Assembly: GCA_003144275.1 (NCBI GenBank)
Contig: NJBF01000049.1
Location: 1 to 22,346 of the forward strand
Source of the DNA: Candidatus Heimdallarchaeota archaeon B3_Heim
Lineage (GTDB): Archaea > Asgardarchaeota > Heimdallarchaeia > Hodarchaeales > Hodarchaeaceae
Length of the DNA: 22,346 bases
Direction of reading: 5' to 3'
This document shows, one piece after another, positions 9,398 through 22,346 of this stretch. Every line of letters begins with the position of its first letter. Position 1 is the stretch's first letter. The notes beneath the pieces are model-generated. The model ran no database searches. It had not been told where the DNA came from and was given only the letters and a program-made list of their open reading frames with translations. Position numbers and translations under genes: made by a program.

Positions 9398-9428
9398 ACG
9401 TTGTGCAACATTGCGCAACGTTTATTAA
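9398..9428 (+). promoter_or_regulatory. Palindromic operator-like site abutting a TATA box
   Basis: ACGTTGTGCAA-CA-TTGCGCAACGT (9398-9421; arms match 10/11) overlaps the first base of TTTATTAA (9421-9428), which ends 29 nt before ATG 9458. Confidence 0.7.
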
Positions 9429-9457
9429 GAGATATACTTAGTGAGTCCTTGTATAAA

Positions 9458-9901
9458 ATGTCTGAAATACAGGATAGAGAATTAAAGAAAATACTGTCGC
9501 AGATTCTAGACGAATTAAAAATAATTTCTCAGAATTTAATTTCAATCGACTCATTTTTAGCTACATCTTCAATAGTATCAGCGGAAACTACTAGTTCTAG
9601 GACTACTGTTTCGAACGAGTCTAGAGTGGATGCTTTAACATCGATGCCTTCAAGTCTAGATATATTAAATTTACAGGAATCCCGACCTGGAATATTCAAA
9701 ACATATAAAGCAATACAGAAAATCGAAGATTGGGTAAAAAGTGCTGATATTGCGAGTCTGACTTTCCGAACTCGCGGTTTAGAATCTAGATATCTTAATT
9801 ATTTAGCTCAAAAAGGATTTGTAATGAAGAAAAGAGAAAAAATTGACTCCGAAAGTAGAGCAACTGAGGTCTGGTACAAAATCGTTGGAGCGAATAGTTA
9901 G
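9458..9901 (+). CDS. Coiled-coil plus C-terminal winged helix-turn-helix DNA-binding protein
   Basis: N-terminal heptads (LKKILSQILDELKIISQNL), a Ser/Thr linker, then an HTH-wing pattern (SADIASLTFRTRGLESRYLNYLAQKGFVMKKR...VWYKI). The TATA position favours ATG 9458 over the track's 9386. Confidence 0.75.
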   Translation: MSEIQDRELKKILSQILDELKIISQNLISIDSFLATSSIVSAETTSSRTTVSNESRVDALTSMPSSLDILNLQESRPGIFKTYKAIQKIEDWVKSADIASLTFRTRGLESRYLNYLAQKGFVMKKREKIDSESRATEVWYKIVGANS

Positions 9902-10702
9902 ATGGAGACAATTACGTTTCACAGCTATAGGTGAGGAGTTGGAAAAACTCTTCTCTCAGTCAACACAGCGGTAAAATTATCTCTATTGGGTAAAAAAGTA
10001 TGTTTAGTCGATTTTGATCTTCGAGCACCATCTCACCAATCCTTGTTTACCTCTAGTTCGTTTTCGATTACTTCTGCCGCCAAATCGTTTACAGGATTTC
10101 TCGTAGGCAATCATGAACCGCAAATGGTAATTAATTCTACCGATAGAGAGAATTTTTATTGTGTTTTTTCCGATATTGAAATTCTTCAACGAAAAGAATC
10201 TAAAATACGTACCAAGTTGACCCAACATGGTGAGGGAAGAATACTTGCAAAATTATTCGAGTTTGTACGATATTGCAACACACAAAAGTTCGACTTTCTC
10301 ATTTTTGACTGCATGCCAGGAATAACATATCGCTCGCTTGATGCACTTGTTGTTTCGGATAAGGTTATGGTTGTAACTCGCCCTGTAAGATCAGAAATTT
10401 CCGGATTGCGGTTAGTAATCTCAGAATGTTATTCGAAACTTGAGGGAGCGAAGCTCTTCTCAATTATGAATCAGGTAGAACAGCAAGAGGATTTAGCTCA
10501 CATTCCAAATTCATTGGATGTCAATCTTGCCAAAGAAAACGTTCAAGGGATAACGAAATGTCTCGAGGAAAGTTCAGTCTCAATTCCCTTACTTTACACT
10601 TTTCGAAGAATTCCATTTGTAACAGAGAGAATATACGTGCTTGATGAAAAAAATCATCCCTTTACAATTGAAATCGAGGATTTTTGTTCAAAGATATTAT
10701 GA
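9902..10702 (+). pseudogene. MinD/ParA family ATPase with an in-frame TGA in Walker A
   Basis: ATG 9902 directly follows the upstream TAG and reads METITFHSYR*GVGKTLLSVNTAVKLSLLGKKVCLVDFD, in frame with the track ORF at 9986. TGA 9932-9934 replaces the Gly of (K/R)GGxGKT. Walker A' VDFD and Walker B LIFDCMPG are intact. Confidence 0.85.
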
Positions 10703-10730
10703 AAATGAGATTTATAGCTGAAGTGTCTAT

Positions 10731-12221
10731 ATGAGTGAGATTCGGGGTAATAAAGGGTTTGAATCGCCTTCTCAGGAAGATCTTGATGATTATCTTAGAC
10801 AAAGTCGAAAATCTATAACGCAAATGAAAGATGGAAAACCACCAATAATCTTTAAACCAAAAAAAGCACTTCCTATAAAATTCTTGGGAATAATGCTGTT
10901 AGTAGTTGTTTCTTCTAGCCTGATGCTGGTAGGCTCTTTCATTGACTTTGATTCCCCCGGAAATAATAACAACACAGATAAGACGACGACTGAAACTACA
11001 ACAATGCTTACAACTACCACGACCACAACAACCCAAGTTGAAACGACTATACCAATTGACATAGAAAAGGATATTACCACGTCAATTCCTCTAGTAGAAG
11101 CTTTCATTAACACCATGATTGCCCCTAATCACTCTCTAATAAATCCAATAGTGATTAATGGGACAATTAACAGATCCCAGACAATTTCTGACCTTGAGTT
11201 GTTCGACTTGGTCTGGATTCTAAGCCAATTCGATGAAAACTCAGAATGGTGGAATCTGGGAAGAAGTTTGATATTTGAGAAATATCTCCTGTGGAATAAA
11301 ACATCCTTCTTGACCGAGAATCTTCGAACACAACTCTTAGCATTAAGAAGCATGATTGCTTACTCTAATGACAATATTCTCCTAGAATCAGATGCGCTTG
11401 AAAGTTATCAGAATTTGACGAAACAGCTCTGGGAGAATGTAAGTTCAGCTTATGACAATGTAACAGGAACTTTTAATCCAGATAACAGTACTATTTTACA
11501 TACTAATGATCAAATACTCTTTAGTCAAGTTCTTGCCAAAACAGCTGGTCATCCTACTCCATTTAATTTCAACATCATAACAGAAAAAGCAATTCTGTTA
11601 TTAAATACAATTTATACGCTTACAGAACCTACAGATGGTCTTCCAGAATCTTTTGATCATAATTTGACTAGAGTTTCCGACGTGTTTTATAGTCATCATC
11701 AAGCAGCCATGATTCTTGTTTTAGATAAATTATCATCACTTTTAGGATCATTCTCAATCATTAACACACTTGCAAATCGATTAAACAATTATTTAACCAA
11801 TATCTTCCTTCAACAAAATTGGAGTATTGCTTTTAACTATAATCAAACCTCCCACAATCTCTCATCCAAAATTGTACTAACTGATCAGATATTATTCATC
11901 AGGGTGAATATCCTCCAAAATAAGCGGAATTTTGCCGATTACACGATAAGTACAGTAAAATCGTCCTTTGGGTCTGAAAATTCGAGCTACTTCACCGCTA
12001 ATGACGATCAGGAGACACAATTTCTCACAGATCATGTTTATCTTCTTCTTTCTTTTGAAGAATTCCTCAAGTTAGAAACGACCGCTACTACTTACACTAG
12101 CACTGAACCTGAAGAAACTTCTGCTGAACAACCTGATGCTGCAGGATTTGCCTGGGAATTTACAATAATTCTGACTGTACTTGTTTTTATATCTTATCGG
12201 CGGCGGAAAATTAAACAGTAG
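10731..12221 (+). CDS. Surface glycoprotein with an N-proximal TM, Thr-rich linkers and a C-terminal PGF-like sorting signal
   Basis: TM FLGIMLLVVVSSSLMLVGSFI, Thr run TTTETTTMLTTTTTTTT, more than ten N-x-S/T sequons, and C-terminus PDAAGFAWEFTIILTVLVFISYRRRKIKQ. Confidence 0.85.
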   Translation: MSEIRGNKGFESPSQEDLDDYLRQSRKSITQMKDGKPPIIFKPKKALPIKFLGIMLLVVVSSSLMLVGSFIDFDSPGNNNNTDKTTTETTTMLTTTTTTTTQVETTIPIDIEKDITTSIPLVEAFINTMIAPNHSLINPIVINGTINRSQTISDLELFDLVWILSQFDENSEWWNLGRSLIFEKYLLWNKTSFLTENLRTQLLALRSMIAYSNDNILLESDALESYQNLTKQLWENVSSAYDNVTGTFNPDNSTILHTNDQILFSQVLAKTAGHPTPFNFNIITEKAILLLNTIYTLTEPTDGLPESFDHNLTRVSDVFYSHHQAAMILVLDKLSSLLGSFSIINTLANRLNNYLTNIFLQQNWSIAFNYNQTSHNLSSKIVLTDQILFIRVNILQNKRNFADYTISTVKSSFGSENSSYFTANDDQETQFLTDHVYLLLSFEEFLKLETTATTYTSTEPEETSAEQPDAAGFAWEFTIILTVLVFISYRRRKIKQ

Positions 12222-12224
12222 AAT

Positions 12225-12260
12225 CGAGAGGAAAAAGTCTCTCGTTAGAACAGTTTTTTT
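12225..12260 (+). terminator. Putative terminator
   Basis: CGAGAG (12225-12230) / CTCTCG (12239-12244) stem followed by a T-tract, just after the stop at 12221. Confidence 0.45.
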
Positions 12261-12345
12261 TCAGAGGATCTCGATGAATTACATCCTCCCAATATTTCTG
12301 TCAATGTTAACTGATTTAAAAATCCAATTATGAAATCTATTTCTT

Positions 12346-12402: not shown

Positions 12403-14868
12403 ATGAAAAAAATGATTCACAAAAAATCAAATTTAAAATTGGTTAGCTTCTGTATATTTGTACTAACAATCATGATGTTTTCACCAGTGATTGCTATAGC
12501 TGATCAAACTCCCATTGTCCCCGTTGATGATGTAGAAGATACTTACAGCCCAGTATCTTACGGTGATTGGGATTACTATACTCTTCCCCCAGGAACTAGT
12601 TACTCCGATGTATTCTATACTGGTGGAGGTGGATTAGATGGATCGGCAGAATTTACCGAAATATCGTCTGACAGGAATTTTTTTGATCTCAATGATAGAC
12701 CGCTAACTAAAGATGATTATATCGGATCATGGGCATTACGTGGTGATTCACGAGATTCAAGTCACATTTTCTTTGATAACACACTCTACCCACGAGCGGT
12801 AAGGATTGAGTCTAATAAAGACGCCGATTTTCTGAAATCTCAGAAATCCTTGCTCTCACTACACGAAGATTATTCTTCGACATTCTTTGCTGAAAAAGAT
12901 GTCGATTACAAAGGTTATTTTGACTCTAACGATAGTTTTTTTCTCGATGTAACCCTAGGTAATAGTAAAGCTGATGCAGATATTGAGTTCTATTTTAATT
13001 ATCCACTTGGAGGATATACCGCAGGGGTACCCGAAAGTAAGATGACTTATCCATTTATTCCTATGATGGATGGAGTACAACAATTCACGATAACTGCAAA
13101 CGACTCTACCCTTGTTACACTGACCCCTCATGAATGGAAATTTCCATCATGGATGCCAAATTTGGAACTAAATTCTATCTTCTCGGAGGAATTCGATCAA
13201 GGTGATCCTTGGTCTAAGGATGAGAACACCGATGAATTAGTCAAACCTGACAATGAGATGTTTAGTCTACGGATGTTTAATATCTCTGTTGAGAAAGACC
13301 AATACTACAGAATTAATACAATTTTTGAAATGGATGAAGTAAAACCTGGTGTACTCAGCAGTCAACCATTCACATTTCTTATTGGGGATTATTATCAAAT
13401 CTTGGGTGGGGGAACTCTAGATGGAGATGGTTTGGTAATTCGAGCAACTGAAGCCGAAGGAATTACTCTTGTCATGTATTCTCCAGGAGAAGCACATGGG
13501 TCTTATTCAATATTTTTTCAAGAGATTTCTCAGTTCGCATTAGAAGACCAAGAACCCCTTCCTCTTAATGAAAATTTCGCACCTGAAACTAACGTATACT
13601 ATGAATTTACATTATCTTCTCCGACAGCTGTTCGCTTTAACTCCTCTAATCCATCATTTGATTATGATGTTTACGTTGAAGGAAATCCAGGTCAATGGCT
13701 ATATAAGACTAATGAAGTGTTCTTCGGGGCTGGTCCTAATGATTGGACCTATCTACCAAGTGGAAAATATGCAATCGTATTTTCAAACTTTGTAATAGAG
13801 GATAAAATGCGTGTAAATTTGGTTGAAGTGCAATCCCCAGATGTAGTACCATTTTCCATTAACCAAGATAGTATACTTGCCATAGAACTGCCATTAACTC
13901 GGAATAGACTTAACTTTGTGAATATATCGACAACTGATCATATTAATCAATCAATCACCTATTCATACACTATATTTAACAAATATAGAGATTTAGGATA
14001 TTCGCCATTTACTACTAGCACTTCCTTAGGTAATCGTCAACTCAATGGTGTATGGGACGATTGGCCAAGTAATAATACACGTATTGCATCGTATCTTCCC
14101 TCACGTGACTATGATGCTCCCATATTAGTTGTTGCCCCTACTTCCGCTCTCAATGGTTCGGGTGTTTCCGTATCAACTTTTGCGGGTACACTAAGAATTT
14201 CCTCTAATGAAGCAGTTGATCAATCTTATCAAGATCTTACATTTTCTTCCTTATCAACAGCTTTCAGTTCAACTGGTTTCTATGGAAATTTCATCCCCAC
14301 ATCAACCATAAGCCAAACGACGGATTTTGCTATAAATGATGATCAAACAACATCTAACTACCAAATATACGGAGTTCCATTAGATTTGGATCCTAATAGC
14401 ATATATAATGTTTCTGTATATCTTATTGGCAACTATTCAACATCTAATAGTCTAAATGCTACATTCTATAATGATATCCATGCTCATGGTGGTAATTTGC
14501 GCGATTTAGATATCTTTGAACTCCTTATTGATGATTCAGATGAGGAACAGGCATGGCAATCTTTTCTAATCTTAACTGTTTCAGATGTCACCTATCTCTA
14601 TATCAATCTACTCAGAGATTCTGGTTACAATTCGACACTTCAAATATCAATATCAAAATTATCTGCAACAGCGATGAATTTCCAATTAAACCAAGAATAC
14701 AACGAAACGGTAAGCGATAATGAGGTAAAACAGACATCACTTGTGGTCAAGAAGATTACACCAGCAGAGATGAAAAAATCAGCCCCTGGATTTGAGATGG
14801 CAATAGTATTATTTTCTACTATTGGATTGTCGATCTTTATGTCACGAAGACGACGTAAGATGAAATAA
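12403..14868 (+). CDS. Large secreted surface glycoprotein with a PGF-CTERM-like (Heimdall-type) sorting signal
   Basis: Signal peptide, beta-rich acidic body with more than ten sequons, and C-terminus APGFEMAIVLFSTIGLSIFMSRRRRKMK. Paralog of 15268-17757. Confidence 0.9.
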   Translation: MKKMIHKKSNLKLVSFCIFVLTIMMFSPVIAIADQTPIVPVDDVEDTYSPVSYGDWDYYTLPPGTSYSDVFYTGGGGLDGSAEFTEISSDRNFFDLNDRPLTKDDYIGSWALRGDSRDSSHIFFDNTLYPRAVRIESNKDADFLKSQKSLLSLHEDYSSTFFAEKDVDYKGYFDSNDSFFLDVTLGNSKADADIEFYFNYPLGGYTAGVPESKMTYPFIPMMDGVQQFTITANDSTLVTLTPHEWKFPSWMPNLELNSIFSEEFDQGDPWSKDENTDELVKPDNEMFSLRMFNISVEKDQYYRINTIFEMDEVKPGVLSSQPFTFLIGDYYQILGGGTLDGDGLVIRATEAEGITLVMYSPGEAHGSYSIFFQEISQFALEDQEPLPLNENFAPETNVYYEFTLSSPTAVRFNSSNPSFDYDVYVEGNPGQWLYKTNEVFFGAGPNDWTYLPSGKYAIVFSNFVIEDKMRVNLVEVQSPDVVPFSINQDSILAIELPLTRNRLNFVNISTTDHINQSITYSYTIFNKYRDLGYSPFTTSTSLGNRQLNGVWDDWPSNNTRIASYLPSRDYDAPILVVAPTSALNGSGVSVSTFAGTLRISSNEAVDQSYQDLTFSSLSTAFSSTGFYGNFIPTSTISQTTDFAINDDQTTSNYQIYGVPLDLDPNSIYNVSVYLIGNYSTSNSLNATFYNDIHAHGGNLRDLDIFELLIDDSDEEQAWQSFLILTVSDVTYLYINLLRDSGYNSTLQISISKLSATAMNFQLNQEYNETVSDNEVKQTSLVVKKITPAEMKKSAPGFEMAIVLFSTIGLSIFMSRRRRKMK

Positions 14869-15267: not shown

Positions 15268-17757
15268 ATGATTAAATCAAAATTAATTAAATATTCATTT
15301 GTATGTATATTTCTTATAACTATTATCTTTATGTCTGTTATAATAAAAGTATCAGCTCAGACACCAATAATTGATATTTCAGAAGAGCGGGATACTTTTA
15401 CTCCTAGTTCTATGGCTGATAACTGGGATTATTATATTGTAAATCCTGGTTCGGTGTTTCCTGATATAGTCTATCAAGGATTACCAACAACTATGCAGTA
15501 TTCATCCGAATTGTCAAATACTTTTGAAACTCTTACAACTGATCGAGATCCAGGAGAATCATTACTTAACCACTTGAAATCTAGTGATAGTCGTAATTCT
15601 AAACACCCATTCTTTGATGATGAAGAATTACCACGTGCGGTGAGAACTTCTACCGACGATGAAGCTAGCTACAGTGCAAAGCAATTGATGACAATAAGTC
15701 TTCACATGAATTATCAATTTACATTTTTAGCAGAAGACAACATTGAATATCTAGTACTAATAAATTCGAGTGATCCATTCTATTTGGATGTTGATATCAA
15801 AGATGACTCTGCAGCAGGAGAACTAAACTTTGAAACATCAATTTTCCCGTATCCTGGATTTCCATTAACAGGTGTATGGAAAGAAACCATACCTGTATTT
15901 CCAGTAGAGGAGAGGACTTTAAGGTTCACTTTTAAGGTTGATAGTCCAACTATTGTTGCACTTACACCCCACAAAATGGGATCTAGTTCAAGCATTACGA
16001 TACCAGCTAATAATACATTTGGAGCTGAAATCGTTCAGGACATTCCTAGCCCATTACCAACTGATCAGGAAATAACGGCAGAAGATCTCAATAAGAAAAT
16101 TGGATTCAGCTTACGTCAATTTTCGCTTCCTATGGTTGAAGGTGAGTATTATAGAATCTATTTATTTATGAACGATCTTGATCCGTCAACTAATCAATCT
16201 ATTCCTTTCCTCCTAGGAGAGAATTATCATATTATCAGTGGAACTTTAAACACTGATGGATTGTTAGTACGTGCTACAGCAGATACTAAACTGACTCTTG
16301 TTTTATATTCTAAAGGTTATACGAATCAGGAATATACAATTTATTTTAGAAATGTCGTAGCAACTTCTGATACAGCAGAATTGGAATTAAATGTTAATAC
16401 AACTTTAGAAAGCGGAACTCGTTATTTTTTTACTTTGAATCTTCCATCGATGATGGCTATAAACTATACAGGACCAATTTGTAGGTTTGATTTATTAGCA
16501 GAAAGTGGTATTCCTGAATTCCCCTGGATTGAAGTTGCAGATCAAGGAGACTTTTATCTTAAAGATGGTAATTTATATGACCCTGGATTAACAGGAATAG
16601 ATTGGATTTATGTCCCCGCAGGGAATTACGCATTAGATCCTAAAACTCCCTTAAGTGATGTAATAATGTTTCATACAGTGGAAGTCCAAGAGCTGTCCCC
16701 ATCCCTATCACTTTCTATGAATCAAAACAGCGTGATTGCATTCGAAATTCCCGAATCAAGTTTACAATTTAACCAGATTAATCGTGTAAATATGTCAACT
16801 TCTGATCACAAAAACGAATCGATAACCTATCAATACTCTGTTGTAGCCAAATATAATGAATTAATTGATGAAAGCGTTCCAAGTGTTGCCATGGGAAATG
16901 AAGAGACTAGTCCTGGAAGTTGGACAGCTTGGGATGAAAACAATACTGAAATCCTTGAATTTCTCCCTAGTAGACCAAAGGAAACCCCAGTAGTCGTCAT
17001 TAGACCATTGAGTGCAGAAAACCAATCAGGATCCATATCAACTTTCTCTGCAAATTTAGCTATCTCTTTAAGTCAGCCAACAAATTATTACCCCCTTGAT
17101 ACTGATATCATGACAAGAGACTATCTAGGAACAGGTGTTATTCTTCCTAAATCAAGTGTTGTCTCTGGAACTAGTGAATTTACCATTAATGATGATTTAA
17201 CTGCAAGCGTTGATCAAATATTAGGTATCCCGTTATCTATGAATCAGTACCAGCTATATAATATAACTTTATATTTAGAGGGCAATTACACAAGCGCTGG
17301 TGACTTGAATGCATCATTTGAAGGGATAAACATAAATGGAGGTAACTTGGGACATATCATGGTTTTTGAATCCGAAACATCTGGCTCTAGTGCCACTAAT
17401 AGTTGGATAAACTTGCTTGTCCTTGCTATATCCCCTACATCATATTTATATGTGGACATAATCAGGAATGACGTAGCCCAACCAGGAACTGAATGGGGAA
17501 ATTGTACGTTGATAGTTGATATCGCAGGTTTAACAGTTGATCCTATGACCTATAATTTGACGGATGAACAGAATTGGAATCCCGACCGTCTCGATGGAGA
17601 AACACGCAATACTGACTACTTATTTGAAGAAATAAAACCCTCGGAATTCCCCTCTGGAGGAATCGATCTTTCATTTATTCTGTTGGTAGGTGTAGTATTC
17701 GCTGGTGCTGCTGGAGGCGCAGGAGCATTTTATTATTTCAGAACTCGTAGAGGTTAA
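15268..17757 (+). CDS. Large secreted surface glycoprotein with a C-terminal TM anchor
   Basis: Signal peptide (cleavage near VSA-Q). Shares blocks with 12403-14868 (QTPI, WDYY, PRAVR, FSLR..YYRI, DW.Y.P.G.YA, STxDHxNxSITY, GGNL). C-terminus PSEFPSGGIDLSFILLVGVVFAGAAGGAGAFYYFRTRRG. Confidence 0.9.
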   Translation: MIKSKLIKYSFVCIFLITIIFMSVIIKVSAQTPIIDISEERDTFTPSSMADNWDYYIVNPGSVFPDIVYQGLPTTMQYSSELSNTFETLTTDRDPGESLLNHLKSSDSRNSKHPFFDDEELPRAVRTSTDDEASYSAKQLMTISLHMNYQFTFLAEDNIEYLVLINSSDPFYLDVDIKDDSAAGELNFETSIFPYPGFPLTGVWKETIPVFPVEERTLRFTFKVDSPTIVALTPHKMGSSSSITIPANNTFGAEIVQDIPSPLPTDQEITAEDLNKKIGFSLRQFSLPMVEGEYYRIYLFMNDLDPSTNQSIPFLLGENYHIISGTLNTDGLLVRATADTKLTLVLYSKGYTNQEYTIYFRNVVATSDTAELELNVNTTLESGTRYFFTLNLPSMMAINYTGPICRFDLLAESGIPEFPWIEVADQGDFYLKDGNLYDPGLTGIDWIYVPAGNYALDPKTPLSDVIMFHTVEVQELSPSLSLSMNQNSVIAFEIPESSLQFNQINRVNMSTSDHKNESITYQYSVVAKYNELIDESVPSVAMGNEETSPGSWTAWDENNTEILEFLPSRPKETPVVVIRPLSAENQSGSISTFSANLAISLSQPTNYYPLDTDIMTRDYLGTGVILPKSSVVSGTSEFTINDDLTASVDQILGIPLSMNQYQLYNITLYLEGNYTSAGDLNASFEGININGGNLGHIMVFESETSGSSATNSWINLLVLAISPTSYLYVDIIRNDVAQPGTEWGNCTLIVDIAGLTVDPMTYNLTDEQNWNPDRLDGETRNTDYLFEEIKPSEFPSGGIDLSFILLVGVVFAGAAGGAGAFYYFRTRRG

Positions 17758-18939: not shown

Positions 18940-20376
18940 TCACCAAAGTTTGCGTTCTAAATACTTTGGCTGCCAGAAGCTAGAAGTTAGTTGACCCCAA
19001 AATCTAATTGCTGATCCAGAGTTCGGAAAAATCTCTGGAAAATTGGCTGCTAATTCTTTTCCATATTCAGTCACCGATTTCTGAAGATTTCTCTCTTGAA
19101 TAATTTCTTTCGCTAATCGATCTGATATCATTTCGAATTCTTCTCTATCCAGATCCGAAATCGAAGCTAAATCTGATAAATAGTGACCCATACTTCGAAG
19201 TACAGCTTTGAGAGCTATTGCCTTAGGAGGTTTACTAAAGTCAGTTCTAAACAGCTTAATAAAAGTCAATCTGTCTATATCTTTGTCAGATTGGCTATAC
19301 TTCTTAACCCTCAAAATATTTCGATACCAATAAGTACTGCCCTGATTAATGTAAAAATTCATCCATTTTTTATATTCAAACTCCTTTTTTCCCCTATAAT
19401 AAGCGTCTAATTCTACTGGAAGTTTTTTAATGGCTAGTAGCTGTCCTTTTAATCCATTCATCTTCATGATTTGTTCTATTTCAGAAAAGAGGGAGGGCTT
19501 CTGCTCATCCCCCAGTAAAATTAGAATTAGCTGGAATGTTCCATCGGGGTCGAGAATGTCTGGAATAGCTGGAAATACTTTCCTAACGACTTTAAATCCA
19601 TCAACTCCTCCATCATTGTGTACTGTATCTTTATAGCGAGTATTATCAGGAGTGGGAAGGATTGGTAAATGACCAGTTATCAGATCAAACTGTTCTGAGA
19701 AATCATATAGATCTGTAGTAATATCTCCTTCTTTAAAGGTCATCCATTGAGAGGTATTATTCCATTCCGCAGTTAATGTTGCTGCAGTCACAGCATTTGG
19801 ATTTAGATCTATCCCTAACATAGAAACATTGGGTCCCTGCCAAGGTAACCCAAATAACTGAAAACCTGATCCTGAAGCGAGATCAAGAATTTTTTTGGGA
19901 TGTTTTATTACTTGGATATACTTATGAAAGGTTAAAGACTCTGCACCGAGATAGACTTGTGGTTCAGTGAATCTTCGGAAAGGAACCAGTATAAAGAAAT
20001 GATTCAGGGGGAAAATTCGGAAAACTGATAAGAATTCACCTTTATCTGTTCGAACTATTAAACGATTCCGTTCTAACTCTTGTTGTAGTTCTTCCGTGAA
20101 TAGGGCCTTAATTTCTTTTAATTTTAATGAGCGATTTTCAGCGAAAAAGGAAAGTAGTAACTCTGTGGTAGGATCACCGTGATTCAATCGTTGTCTTGGT
20201 GCGTGAATGAAACCAAATCCTTCGGCCAGTCTTTGATAATATCCCGCTTTATACTCATGTTTGCCTAATAATCCTTTTAGACAATTTAAACTAGCCTCAA
20301 CATCCTTAAACTCATAATTCAGATATAGGGACATGAGCAGATCATTTTTCACTTGATATTTGAAATCAAAAAACAA
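18940..20376 (-). CDS. Class I SAM-dependent methyltransferase (HemK/MTS-like) with an N-terminal extension
   Basis: Motif I ILDLASGSG, acidic GIDLN, EGDI, motif IV FDLITGHLP (NPPY position diverged), and GGVDG. An alternative start is ATG 20334. Confidence 0.85.
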   Translation of the reverse strand: MFFDFKYQVKNDLLMSLYLNYEFKDVEASLNCLKGLLGKHEYKAGYYQRLAEGFGFIHAPRQRLNHGDPTTELLLSFFAENRSLKLKEIKALFTEELQQELERNRLIVRTDKGEFLSVFRIFPLNHFFILVPFRRFTEPQVYLGAESLTFHKYIQVIKHPKKILDLASGSGFQLFGLPWQGPNVSMLGIDLNPNAVTAATLTAEWNNTSQWMTFKEGDITTDLYDFSEQFDLITGHLPILPTPDNTRYKDTVHNDGGVDGFKVVRKVFPAIPDILDPDGTFQLILILLGDEQKPSLFSEIEQIMKMNGLKGQLLAIKKLPVELDAYYRGKKEFEYKKWMNFYINQGSTYWYRNILRVKKYSQSDKDIDRLTFIKLFRTDFSKPPKAIALKAVLRSMGHYLSDLASISDLDREEFEMISDRLAKEIIQERNLQKSVTEYGKELAANFPEIFPNSGSAIRFWGQLTSSFWQPKYLERKLW

Positions 20377-20411: not shown

Positions 20412-21215
20412 CTAAGTAATATTTGTTAATCTTCTATTTTCAAGGCCTTCTTTCATTTGATAAATGATCTCTAGACTACATATCGCGTGATATGTCGCTT
20501 GCAGTGTTCCTAACGCACTGGATTTTCTAGAAAATCCTCCATTCCCAGTTTTACACTGAAGGATAAACTGTTCACATTTTTCCAAATTCAGGGGGGTTGC
20601 ATTTAGAGTCTGTAATCCTCTTAATGCGTAACAGGTGTTTTCCAAAAATGTTGTTGTGTAAGGTAAAAAACCAAACCCTCCATCACTAGACTGTGATTTT
20701 TGGATCCATTGGATGTACTTTCGTTCCTCAAATTCTTCATTCATTTTTTTCAATAGGAGGAGTCGACGAGATACTTCTGGTATAAAGTTCAAGCTAAAAG
20801 GTGTTTTCGGTAATAAAAATTGATTAGTTAATTCAAACTCAATTTTTGAGCTAGGTATATCTCTTATTAATGTAAAGTAATAAAGCTCGTTAATATTTTC
20901 TGTTTGTAAGTTAGAAGGTAGGTCAAGTATGTTCTTCATCGTCTCTTGATGACCTGTTAATGTAAAAAAGTCCAAAAGGAACAATAATTGGTAAAAATGT
21001 CTACAGGAATGATGTACATCTAATAACATGATTTCTAGATAAGCAAACGTTTTCTTATTAGAATATTTAAAATCTAATCTCTTTAATATCCGCAACGCAT
21101 AGTATGTATCTTCTCGTGTTGGTGGTGTAGTCTTTGAAAAACTAAACCCCCCGTTTGGTTGTTCATATTGGAGTACAAATGAGATTACTTTCTCTTTTTC
21201 CTCATTCGATAACAT
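20412..21215 (-). CDS. Prenyltransferase/squalene-oxidase (PFTB) repeat protein
   Basis: Three repeats: EQPNGGFS..TYYAL, QSSDGGFG..TCYAL and KTGNGGFS..TYHAI. Confidence 0.85.
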   Translation of the reverse strand: MLSNEEKEKVISFVLQYEQPNGGFSFSKTTPPTREDTYYALRILKRLDFKYSNKKTFAYLEIMLLDVHHSCRHFYQLLFLLDFFTLTGHQETMKNILDLPSNLQTENINELYYFTLIRDIPSSKIEFELTNQFLLPKTPFSLNFIPEVSRRLLLLKKMNEEFEERKYIQWIQKSQSSDGGFGFLPYTTTFLENTCYALRGLQTLNATPLNLEKCEQFILQCKTGNGGFSRKSSALGTLQATYHAICSLEIIYQMKEGLENRRLTNIT

Positions 21216-21360: not shown

Positions 21361-22346
21361 CAGTACTTCGTAACTATGGGAGAGGGTGATAATTGAAAAA
21401 TCTCGAAGGGGAAAGACTTAAATGTGGAGAAAAGTGATTAGCAGTTATCATGGACAAAATCAAACTACCTCGCTTTCCACCACGAAAAGCTAGAAAAACT
21501 CCGACTCTTATAAAGTTTGTGGTACGCTGGCTTGACAAATTTCAATTTTTACCAAACCCAATCCCAACTAGTTCGCCTTTTGACATGAAATCTCGATTAA
21601 AATTACTTCTACTGTCCGCCATAGATCGAACTTCCATTTCTCGAAAAGCTCGAGATCTACGAGAGCAAAACCTCCCAATTTCCTCCGGTGAAGCTACTTT
21701 AGCATGGTTAAAAACCAAATCCGTTGAAGATATAACAGCTTTGCAACAAGCTGGTTTCTACCAATTCTTAGAGAGCCTGCCTGAGAACTTTCAGTTTGCT
21801 AGGAAGCAAGGAATGTTGCTAGCGATCGATTTCCATACTGATCCTAATTATGCAAAAACATTATCCGCTTATATCTGTAAAGGTAGGAAGAAAGCCAGTA
21901 CCCACCAGTTTTATCAATATATCACAGTCATTTGGTTAAATGCACCCGAACCAATCACGTTAGCAGTCCAACTTCTCCCTACAAAGCATTCGACTTTCAA
22001 GACTGTTCAGAGCCTTTTGACACCTCTACTCACTCAGGAACGAATTGTTGGAGTACTTGCGGATGGTGGATTTTATAATTATGATTTAATTCACTGGCTT
22101 ATTCATAAGCAAGTTTTTTTCATCATTCGAGGACGTGTTAATGCAGGTGTTAAACCTTTGGTGCGAAAATACCAAGAAGAGTTACGTCAAAAAGGAACAC
22201 ATTTGGTTGTAGACTATCGTGTGAATAAAGGCCATACTCGGAAACGACTTCCCGTTAAGCTCGCTCTTTGTCGAGCAGGTGATCGTATCATGGCTTTAAT
22301 TGTACCTCCCACCTGTGTTCTCTCAGGAAGACGGATAAATGAGCTT
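21361..22346 (+). mobile_element. ISH3-family-like insertion sequence (left part; runs off the window)
   Basis: Transposase ORF from 21450. Candidate left end CAGTACTTCG at 21361 fits the C-GT ends described for ISH3 elements. The right end is not visible. Confidence 0.7.
21450..22346 (+). CDS. DDE transposase, ISH3/IS4-like (partial, 3' truncated)
   Basis: Open frame of 299 codons to the window end, absent from the ORF track: MDKIKLPRF...LLAIDFHTDPNY...FYQYITV...VLADGGFY..., giving the first two catalytic Asp motifs. Confidence 0.85.
   Translation, partial: MDKIKLPRFPPRKARKTPTLIKFVVRWLDKFQFLPNPIPTSSPFDMKSRLKLLLLSAIDRTSISRKARDLREQNLPISSGEATLAWLKTKSVEDITALQQAGFYQFLESLPENFQFARKQGMLLAIDFHTDPNYAKTLSAYICKGRKKASTHQFYQYITVIWLNAPEPITLAVQLLPTKHSTFKTVQSLLTPLLTQERIVGVLADGGFYNYDLIHWLIHKQVFFIIRGRVNAGVKPLVRKYQEELRQKGTHLVVDYRVNKGHTRKRLPVKLALCRAGDRIMALIVPPTCVLSGRRINEL

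Follow-up and report, generated by a model that had tools for sequence, protein, structure and literature searches.

In prokaryotes, ATPases of the ParA/MinD kind organise DNA and protein cargo, and almost nothing is known of them in Asgard archaea. In type Ib par cassettes (ParF-ParG of TP228, delta-omega of pSM19035) and in AspA-ParB-ParA of pNOB8, a small site-specific DNA-binding protein controls its own expression from repeats or a palindrome in its promoter, and a gene for a Walker-type ATPase adjoins. Here we describe a locus of comparable layout in a 22,346-bp contig that was analysed whole (the window) and belongs to a 3.95-Mb assembly of 103 contigs with 36% G+C. A promoter palindrome is followed by three genes, which we call A, B and C, for a small winged helix-turn-helix (wHTH) protein, a ParA/MinD-superfamily ATPase and a membrane protein. 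The triad is compact and well delimited, with one operator-like site, a small regulator, an ATPase, and a membrane partner whose 48-residue tail is conserved. We tentatively propose that the three genes belong to one autoregulated operon and act as a single module, most likely controlling C, a reading that we hold as possible rather than probable. The host is a Heimdall-group archaeon, probably of the Hodarchaeales: homologues of the window proteins carry the names Hodarchaeales, Hodarchaeota or Heimdallarchaeota in public sources, consistent with the Asgard origin claimed in an earlier reading of the window made from the letters alone (the sequence-only reading).

The triad resembles the type Ib and pNOB8 systems in having a small regulator with a promoter palindrome and an adjoining ATPase gene. 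It differs from them in its reversed gene order, in a wHTH instead of a ribbon-helix-helix domain, in the lack of ParB and in having a membrane protein as its third gene; it is also chromosomal, accessory and single-site. A Pfam search of the triad proteins and seven of their neighbours detected no ParB-type family, in agreement with the sequence-only reading, which had seen no ParB. That reading had also noted an echo of pNOB8 AspA-ParB-ParA. The echo holds for the logic of the layout but not for kinship of the ATPases: B shares only residues 3-43 (E 2.6e-5) with pNOB8 ParA (5k5z) and fails the model for partition ParA.

Other ParA/MinD ATPases place or serve machines of the cell envelope, among them MinD4 of Haloferax, FlhG, BcsQ, and HubP with ParA1, ParC and FlhG. 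In these systems the ATPase dimerises with ATP, and a membrane or cargo protein recruits the dimer through a short peptide. The (alpha/alpha)6 glycanase BcsZ is encoded in BcsQ operons, and the triad likewise pairs a ParA/MinD-type ATPase with an (alpha/alpha)6 protein. In contrast to MinD4, FlhG and BcsQ, B falls under all subfamily cut-offs and has no evident membrane-targeting helix, and no MinE, MinC, flagellar or cellulose-synthase gene lies near the triad. A further parallel is offered by the RsgI/SigI polysaccharide sensors of clostridia, where a protein with a short cytoplasmic N-terminal segment, one transmembrane (TM) helix and an extracellular carbohydrate-active-like domain controls a cytoplasmic transcription factor. 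C has a similar plan, with a short cytoplasmic tail, a TM helix and a sugar-enzyme-like outer domain. However, there is no kinship of sequence or fold, an ATPase stands between membrane protein and regulator, and the regulator would be a wHTH repressor, not a sigma factor.

A mainly archaeal ParA-wHTH system, in which ParA is encoded beside a wHTH protein with an elongated N-terminal helix, has been described in a preprint (Li, Burroughs and Aravind, October 2026, bioRxiv 10.64898/2026.10.19.760177). There the pairs are proposed to coat invader DNA in immunity, their wHTH is called rapidly evolving, and their clade (ConB2) is marked by the exchange of the second Walker A Lys for Arg and by a PG motif after sensor-1. 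A of the window is modelled with such a long helix and a wHTH, and the A-B adjacency holds in all relatives and in distant homologues. We regard the triad as a three-gene variant of this archaeal cassette, a membership that rests on architecture compared by description and is not proven by sequence, and in which the membrane partner and the operator are new. Neither the third gene, encoding a two-TM (alpha/alpha)6 protein, nor the self-operator is mentioned in the preprint text that was read. Unlike the ConB2 ParA described there, B keeps GKT and DxDxRAP[ST] and lacks the PG motif; unlike the wHTH described there, the one encoded here is conserved in the genus (72%; recognition helix 91%), and the context of the triad gives no pointer to immunity. 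The same source describes PCTM receptor-like ParA proteins, in which a cytoplasmic ParA is fused to a TM and an extracellular domain. B together with C (tail, TM helix, ectodomain) resembles a split form of these, but with two separate genes, a toroid ectodomain, a second TM helix and no upstream effector gene.

The three genes are inherited as a unit

A, B and C follow one another on the forward strand (Table 1). The TAG of A abuts the ATG of B and 28 nt separate B from C, so the zero A/B spacing and the short gap before the membrane-protein gene given by the sequence-only reading are correct.

Orthologues of A (E <1e-30) were identified in 13 of the 21 other species of the genus. At the loci long enough to judge, B starts 0-12 nt after A and is itself followed by C, at a distance ranging from a 4-nt overlap to 28 nt. 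A search with an alignment of C recovered it in 12 of the 13 genomes that have an A orthologue, the thirteenth being cut by a contig end, and in none of the eight same-genus genomes that do not (four of these eight are 90-94% complete). The same order recurs in a sister family that we designate f3, with an A of 117-132 amino acids (aa), a B of 252-255 aa and a third protein of 453 aa whose TM helices lie around residues 40 and 425. It recurs again on a metagenome contig (f2-like), where the third protein has 541 aa and a C-like layout; profile comparison aligns its tail and first TM helix to those of C (E 2.2e-5). A motif of the C tail is common to the third genes of f3 and of the f2-like contig.

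A, B and C travel, diverge and disappear together, and their divergence in step follows the pattern of vertical descent. The possibility that the genes would turn out to be unlinked in relatives, which the sequence-only reading had entertained, is contradicted by the retained order and short spacing; the conservation that it proposed to check is seen for gene order in the 13 same-genus genomes, f3 and the f2-like contig, and for the palindrome at 11 of 14 loci. Because it was not found in 8 of the 21 species of the genus, the triad appears to be accessory and no core segregation machine.

The flanks of the triad are shared only with the nearest relatives. In f3 (L069, G028:C1:1094500-1100700; G032, G036, G156, G178, G206) an Orc1/Cdc6 paralogue is encoded about 4 kb upstream of the triad. 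Two divergent genes stand between them, one for a 720-aa surface protein with a von Willebrand factor A (vWA) domain and one for a 434-aa membrane protein with a C-terminal RING-H2-like zinc finger.

A single-copy palindrome overlaps the promoter of the triad

The sequences TTGTGCAA (9401-9408) and TTGCGCAA (9411-9418) lie one helical turn apart upstream of A. A repeat finder gives inverted-repeat arms of 11 nt at 9398-9408 and 9411-9421, 91% complementary and 2 nt apart. The box TTTATTAA stands directly 3' of the repeat at 9421-9428, and the ATG of A (9458) is 29 nt beyond it. Since the box abuts the repeat, the second half-site covers the position of the transcription factor B recognition element (BRE). 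The sequence-only description of a 24-bp palindrome of two 8-mers lying over the BRE of a TATA box is thus borne out by the sequence and the repeat finder.

The 22-bp core occurs once in the 3.95-Mb assembly, even when up to 5 mismatches are allowed. In five other same-genus genomes, including one single-contig genome of 4.9 Mb, the 22-bp element was found exactly once per genome and always upstream of the A gene, and a reversed control pattern gave 0 matches. A genome scan of the kind suggested by the sequence-only reading thus returned one copy 5' of A here and in each of five relatives. When the 110 nt upstream of A were aligned for 14 same-genus species, the repeat with its TATA box was the sole conserved block, present in 11 of the 14. 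The repeat is a perfect 22-bp palindrome in one of these species, absent from two sister loci and degenerate in one, and either TTTATTAA or TATATAA stands directly 3' of it in relatives.

The f3 promoters carry another inverted repeat, TATC-N8-GATAT, which adjoins the TATA box at 10 of 13 loci, and the recognition helix of the f3 A protein reads RAFNLESRYLVAL or RSMNLESRYLRRL, as against RSRGLESRYLNYL here. The position of the site is kept while its sequence changes with the protein, as expected if A binds its own promoter. One distant homologue of A (L074, TTTGTGTTCAACACAAA) also has a promoter palindrome just 5' of a TATA-like box. Read by eye, the region upstream of a paralogous A'-B' pair on contig C70 of the source genome holds no similar palindrome. 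From the covariation of site and protein we infer that the palindrome is a binding site of A; as the site overlaps the BRE and TATA box, A would repress its own operon.

Gene A encodes a long helix joined to a winged helix-turn-helix domain

An AlphaFold2 model of A, built from an alignment of 19 relatives, has a mean predicted local distance difference test (pLDDT) score of 77.5, rising to ~90 in the wHTH. It consists of a long helix (residues 2-45), a disordered linker (46-62) and a C-terminal wHTH domain (~64-147). Foldseek finds TFE-alpha, Fur/ArsR/MarR and Lrs14-type domains similar to the wHTH (E ~1e-3), and VIA superposes A on TFE-alpha with Z 11.1 and a root-mean-square deviation of 2.2 over 78 residues. 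Along the N-terminal helix, the A family profile finds designed coiled coils; Pfam and NCBIfam searches of A gave no match. Identity within the genus is 72% in the wHTH and 91% in its recognition helix, compared with 42% in the N-terminal helix and 16% in the linker. A longer frame starting at ATG 9386 was ruled out as the A gene, since it crosses the palindrome and stops there in relatives (open frames 148 aa).

Gene B encodes an ATPase of the ParA/MinD superfamily

By sequence, B belongs to the ParA/MinD (SIMIBI) superfamily. It exceeds the Pfam cut-offs for AAA_31 (73.8 vs 27 bits; 2.2e-20), ParA (43.7 vs 27.1), ArsA_ATPase (35.3 vs 24.3) and CbiA (33.5 vs 25.4 bits), and falls below every curated NCBIfam equivalog cut-off. 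The MinD models TIGR01969 (minD_arch; 48.4 vs 201.75) and TIGR01968 (43.1 vs 212.9) and the partition model NF041546 ParA_partition (38.2 vs 180 bits) all score under their cut-offs. So does the best NCBIfam model, the KGGVGR variant (68 vs 90 bits, 1.2e-18), and BcsQ is matched with E 0.004. Assignment as Get3/ArsA or as a BY-kinase was dropped, because those matches cover the P-loop region only and stay under cut-off, and there is no Tyr cluster.

The orthologues of B form a tight clade (53-100% identity), with generic MinD-like proteins next at ~30%. Among the three proteins, conservation is highest in B, with 63-86% identity across the genus (mean 71%). All of 17 relatives share the motifs HSY[KR]GG.GKT and D.D.RAPS and the Walker B motif, and DFDLRAPS and FLIFDCMPG vary little or not at all; these motifs are intact in relatives, and B is predicted to be an active ATPase. 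The deviant Walker A sequence HSYRGGVGKT occurs throughout the genus and in one f3 genome, and HSYKGGTGKT in other relatives. The Walker A signature lysine (9929-9931) is accordingly an arginine in the genus, and the P-loop lysine of GKT is kept in all. Read from the sequence, the C-terminus of B (…IEDFCSKIL) is acidic and hydrophobic, without a basic amphipathic tail.

In the window, codon 11 of B, that of the first Walker A glycine, is TGA (9932-9934). The codon is GGN in 19 of 19 relatives, and the nearest of them, G013, has GGA and an intact B protein 96.6% identical to that of the window. Recoding of the TGA as selenocysteine or glycine was ruled out, since TGA is an ordinary stop here, ending 5 of the 17 window genes including B itself, and the relatives all have GGN. 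In one relative (L014, G004:C416), an early stop shortens the B orthologue to 39 residues; the contig is 3.2 kb long and its assembly 74% complete, and the cause may be a frameshift or faulty assembly.

Gene C encodes a membrane protein with a toroid ectodomain

C has 496 residues. Its 48-residue N-terminal tail, with a predicted helix at 15-33, leads into a TM helix (49-67) and a Thr-rich linker (68-109); Thr and Ser make up half of residues 75-110. Residues 110-450 are modelled as an (alpha/alpha)6 toroid with pLDDT ~90 over most of the domain, and a second, C-terminal TM helix is followed by a basic tail ending RRRKIKQ. In the PDB, Foldseek matches the toroid to cellobiose and N-acetylglucosamine 2-epimerases and GH76 mannanases (E 4e-7, TM-score 0.5-0.6, ~10% identity). 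AlphaFold DB clusters agree with this assignment, and an Atlas structure search gives residues 107-455 a TM-score of 0.8 to the AGE family. On the models, the ectodomain has a six-hairpin (alpha/alpha)6, AGE-like toroid fold. All 14 NxS/T sequons of C lie between the TM helices (13 in the toroid, N80 in the linker), and both TM helices are flanked by basic residues on the tail side; for these reasons we place the toroid outside and both ends inside.

Within the genus the mean identity of C is 59% in the tail, 44% in the ectodomain and 34% in the TM helix. Conserved positions of the ectodomain include DQ and E444/E449. The motif before the C-terminal TM helix is AGF, AGY or ASY in near relatives and absent in others. 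C was ruled out as a PGF-CTERM/archaeosortase substrate, as this motif is unconserved and neither the PGF-CTERM nor the Heimdall-CTERM hidden Markov model of NCBIfam matches.

The sequence-only reading had described a coiled-coil/wHTH gene, a MinD/ParA gene and a membrane protein with a cytoplasmic N-terminus of ~50 aa and a TM helix. AlphaFold2, Foldseek and VIA support its account of A, and the tail (1-48) and TM helix (49-67) of C agree with its account of the third gene, to which a second TM helix must be added. For B, Pfam and the motifs uphold the superfamily; an assignment to MinD proper fails at the cut-offs of both MinD models.

The A-B pair also occurs without C

An exhaustive search with the A family profile retrieved 521 cluster representatives, 42 of them at E <=1e-10, and many match from the N-terminal helix through the wHTH (profile positions ~5-122). 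Two distant homologues (E ~1e-12 to 1e-13) are followed ~10 nt downstream by an ATPase of 256-259 aa carrying HS[YF]KGGTGKT and D.DFRAP[ST]. No C-like gene lies 3' of the two distant wHTH-ParA pairs that were looked up. On sediment metagenome contigs, distant pairs at L071:150-280, L074:3900-4010 and L076 are each followed by a convergent gene for a major facilitator superfamily transporter. The paralogous A'-B' pair of the source genome (C70; L002:1480-2948, minus strand) encodes proteins of 202 and 265 aa, without C. A convergent ATP-binding cassette transporter ATPase and an FtsX-like permease lie beyond B', with a small wHTH gene upstream, and this layout recurs in another same-genus genome (L036). 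Because many A-B pairs lack C, the core function of A and B would need no membrane partner.

Proposed mechanism and alternative explanations

In the single module that we tentatively propose, A would dimerise through its N-terminal helix and grip the double palindrome with its winged helices, repressing its own operon at the BRE and TATA box. B would be an ATP-dependent dimerising switch of the ParA/MinD kind, and C would sit in the membrane with its (alpha/alpha)6 domain outside and its conserved 48-residue tail inside. The B-ATP dimer would bind the C tail, and probably also the N-terminal helix of A, so that the operator-bound regulator is coupled to the membrane protein through a B-ATP bridge. 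Such coupling could act by two routes: sequestration of the repressor A at the membrane, with feedback on expression, or ATP-driven placement of C in the envelope. The complex of a B dimer, 2 ATP and C residues 1-50 was predicted with the intact G013 orthologues, because B of the window carries a stop. The prediction scored 0.58, with 0.00 for the best of 3 controls, a partner pLDDT of at least 59 and at least 66% of contacts shared between runs. In a benchmark 58 of 80 solved complexes passed, as did 2 of 110 mismatched pairs; passes at or below 0.60 took in only 7 of the 80 solved complexes and both of the passing mismatches, so that a pass of this kind is wrong more often than right unless the contact is likely beforehand. 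The model thus lends weak support to a B dimer that may bind the C tail. The sequence-only reading had suggested modelling the ATPase with the cytoplasmic N-terminus, and this contact is weakly predicted.

Several observations weigh against a single module. The contacts of A with DNA, of A with B and of B with C are all ones that we infer, and the B-C prediction is a weak pass. Three same-genus loci want a clear copy of the palindrome though the recognition helix there is unchanged, and many A-B pairs elsewhere stand without C. C matches no Pfam or NCBIfam family at E <=0.01. No fused B-C protein, nor any longer B-related protein, was found at E 1e-8, which is weak evidence. Finally, the stop in the P-loop of B, if real, would break the module in this strain.

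In an alternative reading, A is only an autorepressor of the operon, and B works by itself on C, for instance to localise, assemble or gate it, as BcsQ, FlhG and MinD4 work on envelope machines, without an A-B contact. The overlap of the operator with the BRE and TATA box is enough to explain A, the conserved tail and its weakly predicted contact with B fit such a role, and ParA/MinD ATPases that serve envelope machines are established. We consider this reading rather unlikely. It accounts poorly for A-like and B-like genes that are adjacent in distant lineages without C, and the preprint defines that pair as the system; on these two grounds we argue that A and B work together. The long N-terminal helix of A is also kept family-wide. 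Partition or DNA-to-membrane tethering, with the palindrome as a centromere-like site, A as binder, B as motor and C as anchor, has models in the type Ib par cassettes, pNOB8 AspA and ParA capture by HubP or PopZ. The single site per genome upstream of its own operon is as in the type Ib and pNOB8 layouts, B may bind the C tail, and in f3 all 6 genomes checked have the triad ~4 kb from the Orc1/Cdc6 paralogue. We nevertheless think this reading unlikely. It is weakened by the accessory distribution (8 of 21 species without a detected triad, four of them 90-94% complete), by the lack of ParB, with B at 38 vs 180 bits on the partition model, and by Orc1/Cdc6 genes that in the genus are nearest at 72-88 kb in two genomes and missing from the triad's 632-kb contig in a third; moreover, the locus is chromosomal without a plasmid signature, and an enzyme-like ectodomain is unexpected of an anchor. 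A B-ATP dimer that physically links the single chromosomal site held by A to a glycan-bound envelope protein C, a centromere-like attachment of chromosome to envelope, is distinctly unlikely; if true, it would be a chromosome-envelope attachment of a new kind, in the archaeal group closest to eukaryotes, and the f3 site, 4 kb from the Orc1/Cdc6 paralogue, might be at a replication origin.

An anti-invader role, in which A and B intercept and coat foreign DNA and C senses envelope perturbation like PCTM, would follow the preprint's hypothesis and the receptor-like ParA architectures described there. It would also suit the accessory distribution among species and the best NCBIfam model of B, the KGGVGR variant with the Lys-to-Arg change of the conflict clade (1.2e-18, under cut-off). 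Yet the wHTH is conserved rather than fast-evolving, a conserved self-site lies in its own promoter, the Walker A lysine is retained in B, which has no PG motif of the kind given for the conflict clade, the neighbours are not defence genes, and A, B and C diverge together as under vertical descent. PADLOC returned short P-loop matches of B to PDC-M28B only and nothing for A or C. We judge immunity very unlikely here; the conserved wHTH, the self-site and the surface-protein partner point instead to regulation or placement of an envelope component, as against the immunity proposed for ParA-wHTH pairs in the preprint. That the cluster is a decaying remnant with an ATPase pseudogene is most improbable. 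The in-frame TGA in the P-loop speaks for it, and a restart at TTG 9986 would lose Walker A. The TGA is however due to one substitution, and B, otherwise nearly identical to that of G013, contains no further stop and no frameshift. Base 9932 was compared with assembled metagenome contigs, and those of four independent runs from four studies all read G; one, of 171 nt, is identical to the window at 170 positions, the sole difference being base 9932. The source sample was not found among the indexed metagenome runs, the best of which holds 0.33 of the sampled words. Because of the single substitution and the G in four runs, a consensus error or a rare private variant is more likely, with the B gene family intact.

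Coordinates of the triad and neighbouring genes

Table 1. Features of the A-B-C locus in the window
Feature	Position	Strand	Basis or remark
Operator-like 24-bp inverted repeat	9398..9421	.	Two 8-mers one helical turn apart
TATA-like box TTTATTAA	9421..9428	+	Read from sequence; conserved in relatives
Gene A, 147 aa	9458..9901	+	Predicted N-terminal long helix, disordered linker, C-terminal wHTH
Gene B, 266 codons, ParA/MinD-superfamily ATPase	9902..10702	+	Pfam scores
In-frame TGA, Walker A glycine codon (HSYR-TGA-GVGKT)	9932..9934	+	Read from sequence
Gene C, predicted cytoplasmic N-terminal tail, residues 1-48	10731..10874	+	Best-conserved segment of C
Gene C, first TM helix (49-67) and Thr-rich disordered linker (68-109)	10875..11057	+	
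Gene C, predicted extracellular (alpha/alpha)6 toroid, residues 110-450	11058..12080	+	AlphaFold2, Foldseek
Gene C, C-terminal TM helix, basic tail YRRRKIKQ, stop codon	12141..12221	+	
Terminator-like hairpin CGAGAG/CTCTCG (12225-12244) then T8 (12254-12261)	12225..12261	+	Read from sequence

The gene that follows the terminator-like hairpin starts at 12403 and encodes a PGF-CTERM surface protein; because the hairpin and T8 lie between it and C, it seems to be a separate unit. It is one of two genes for paralogous surface proteins of ~820 aa (12403-14868 and 15268-17757). The product of 12403-14868 (821 aa) ends in PGF, a TM helix and RRRRK and gives a weak Heimdall-CTERM match; that of 15268-17757 has a different, Gly/Ala-rich anchor. 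The gene at 12403-14868 lies 3' of the triad only in the three nearest relatives. Further downstream, 18940-20376 encodes a 478-aa protein with a class I methyltransferase domain. It adjoins 20412-21215, the gene for a prenyltransferase alpha-alpha toroid repeat protein (Pfam 1.5e-15), the second protein of toroid fold in the window, which has no sequence kinship to C. An open frame at 21450-22346 runs off the contig end; its basic product, judged by eye, resembles a transposase.

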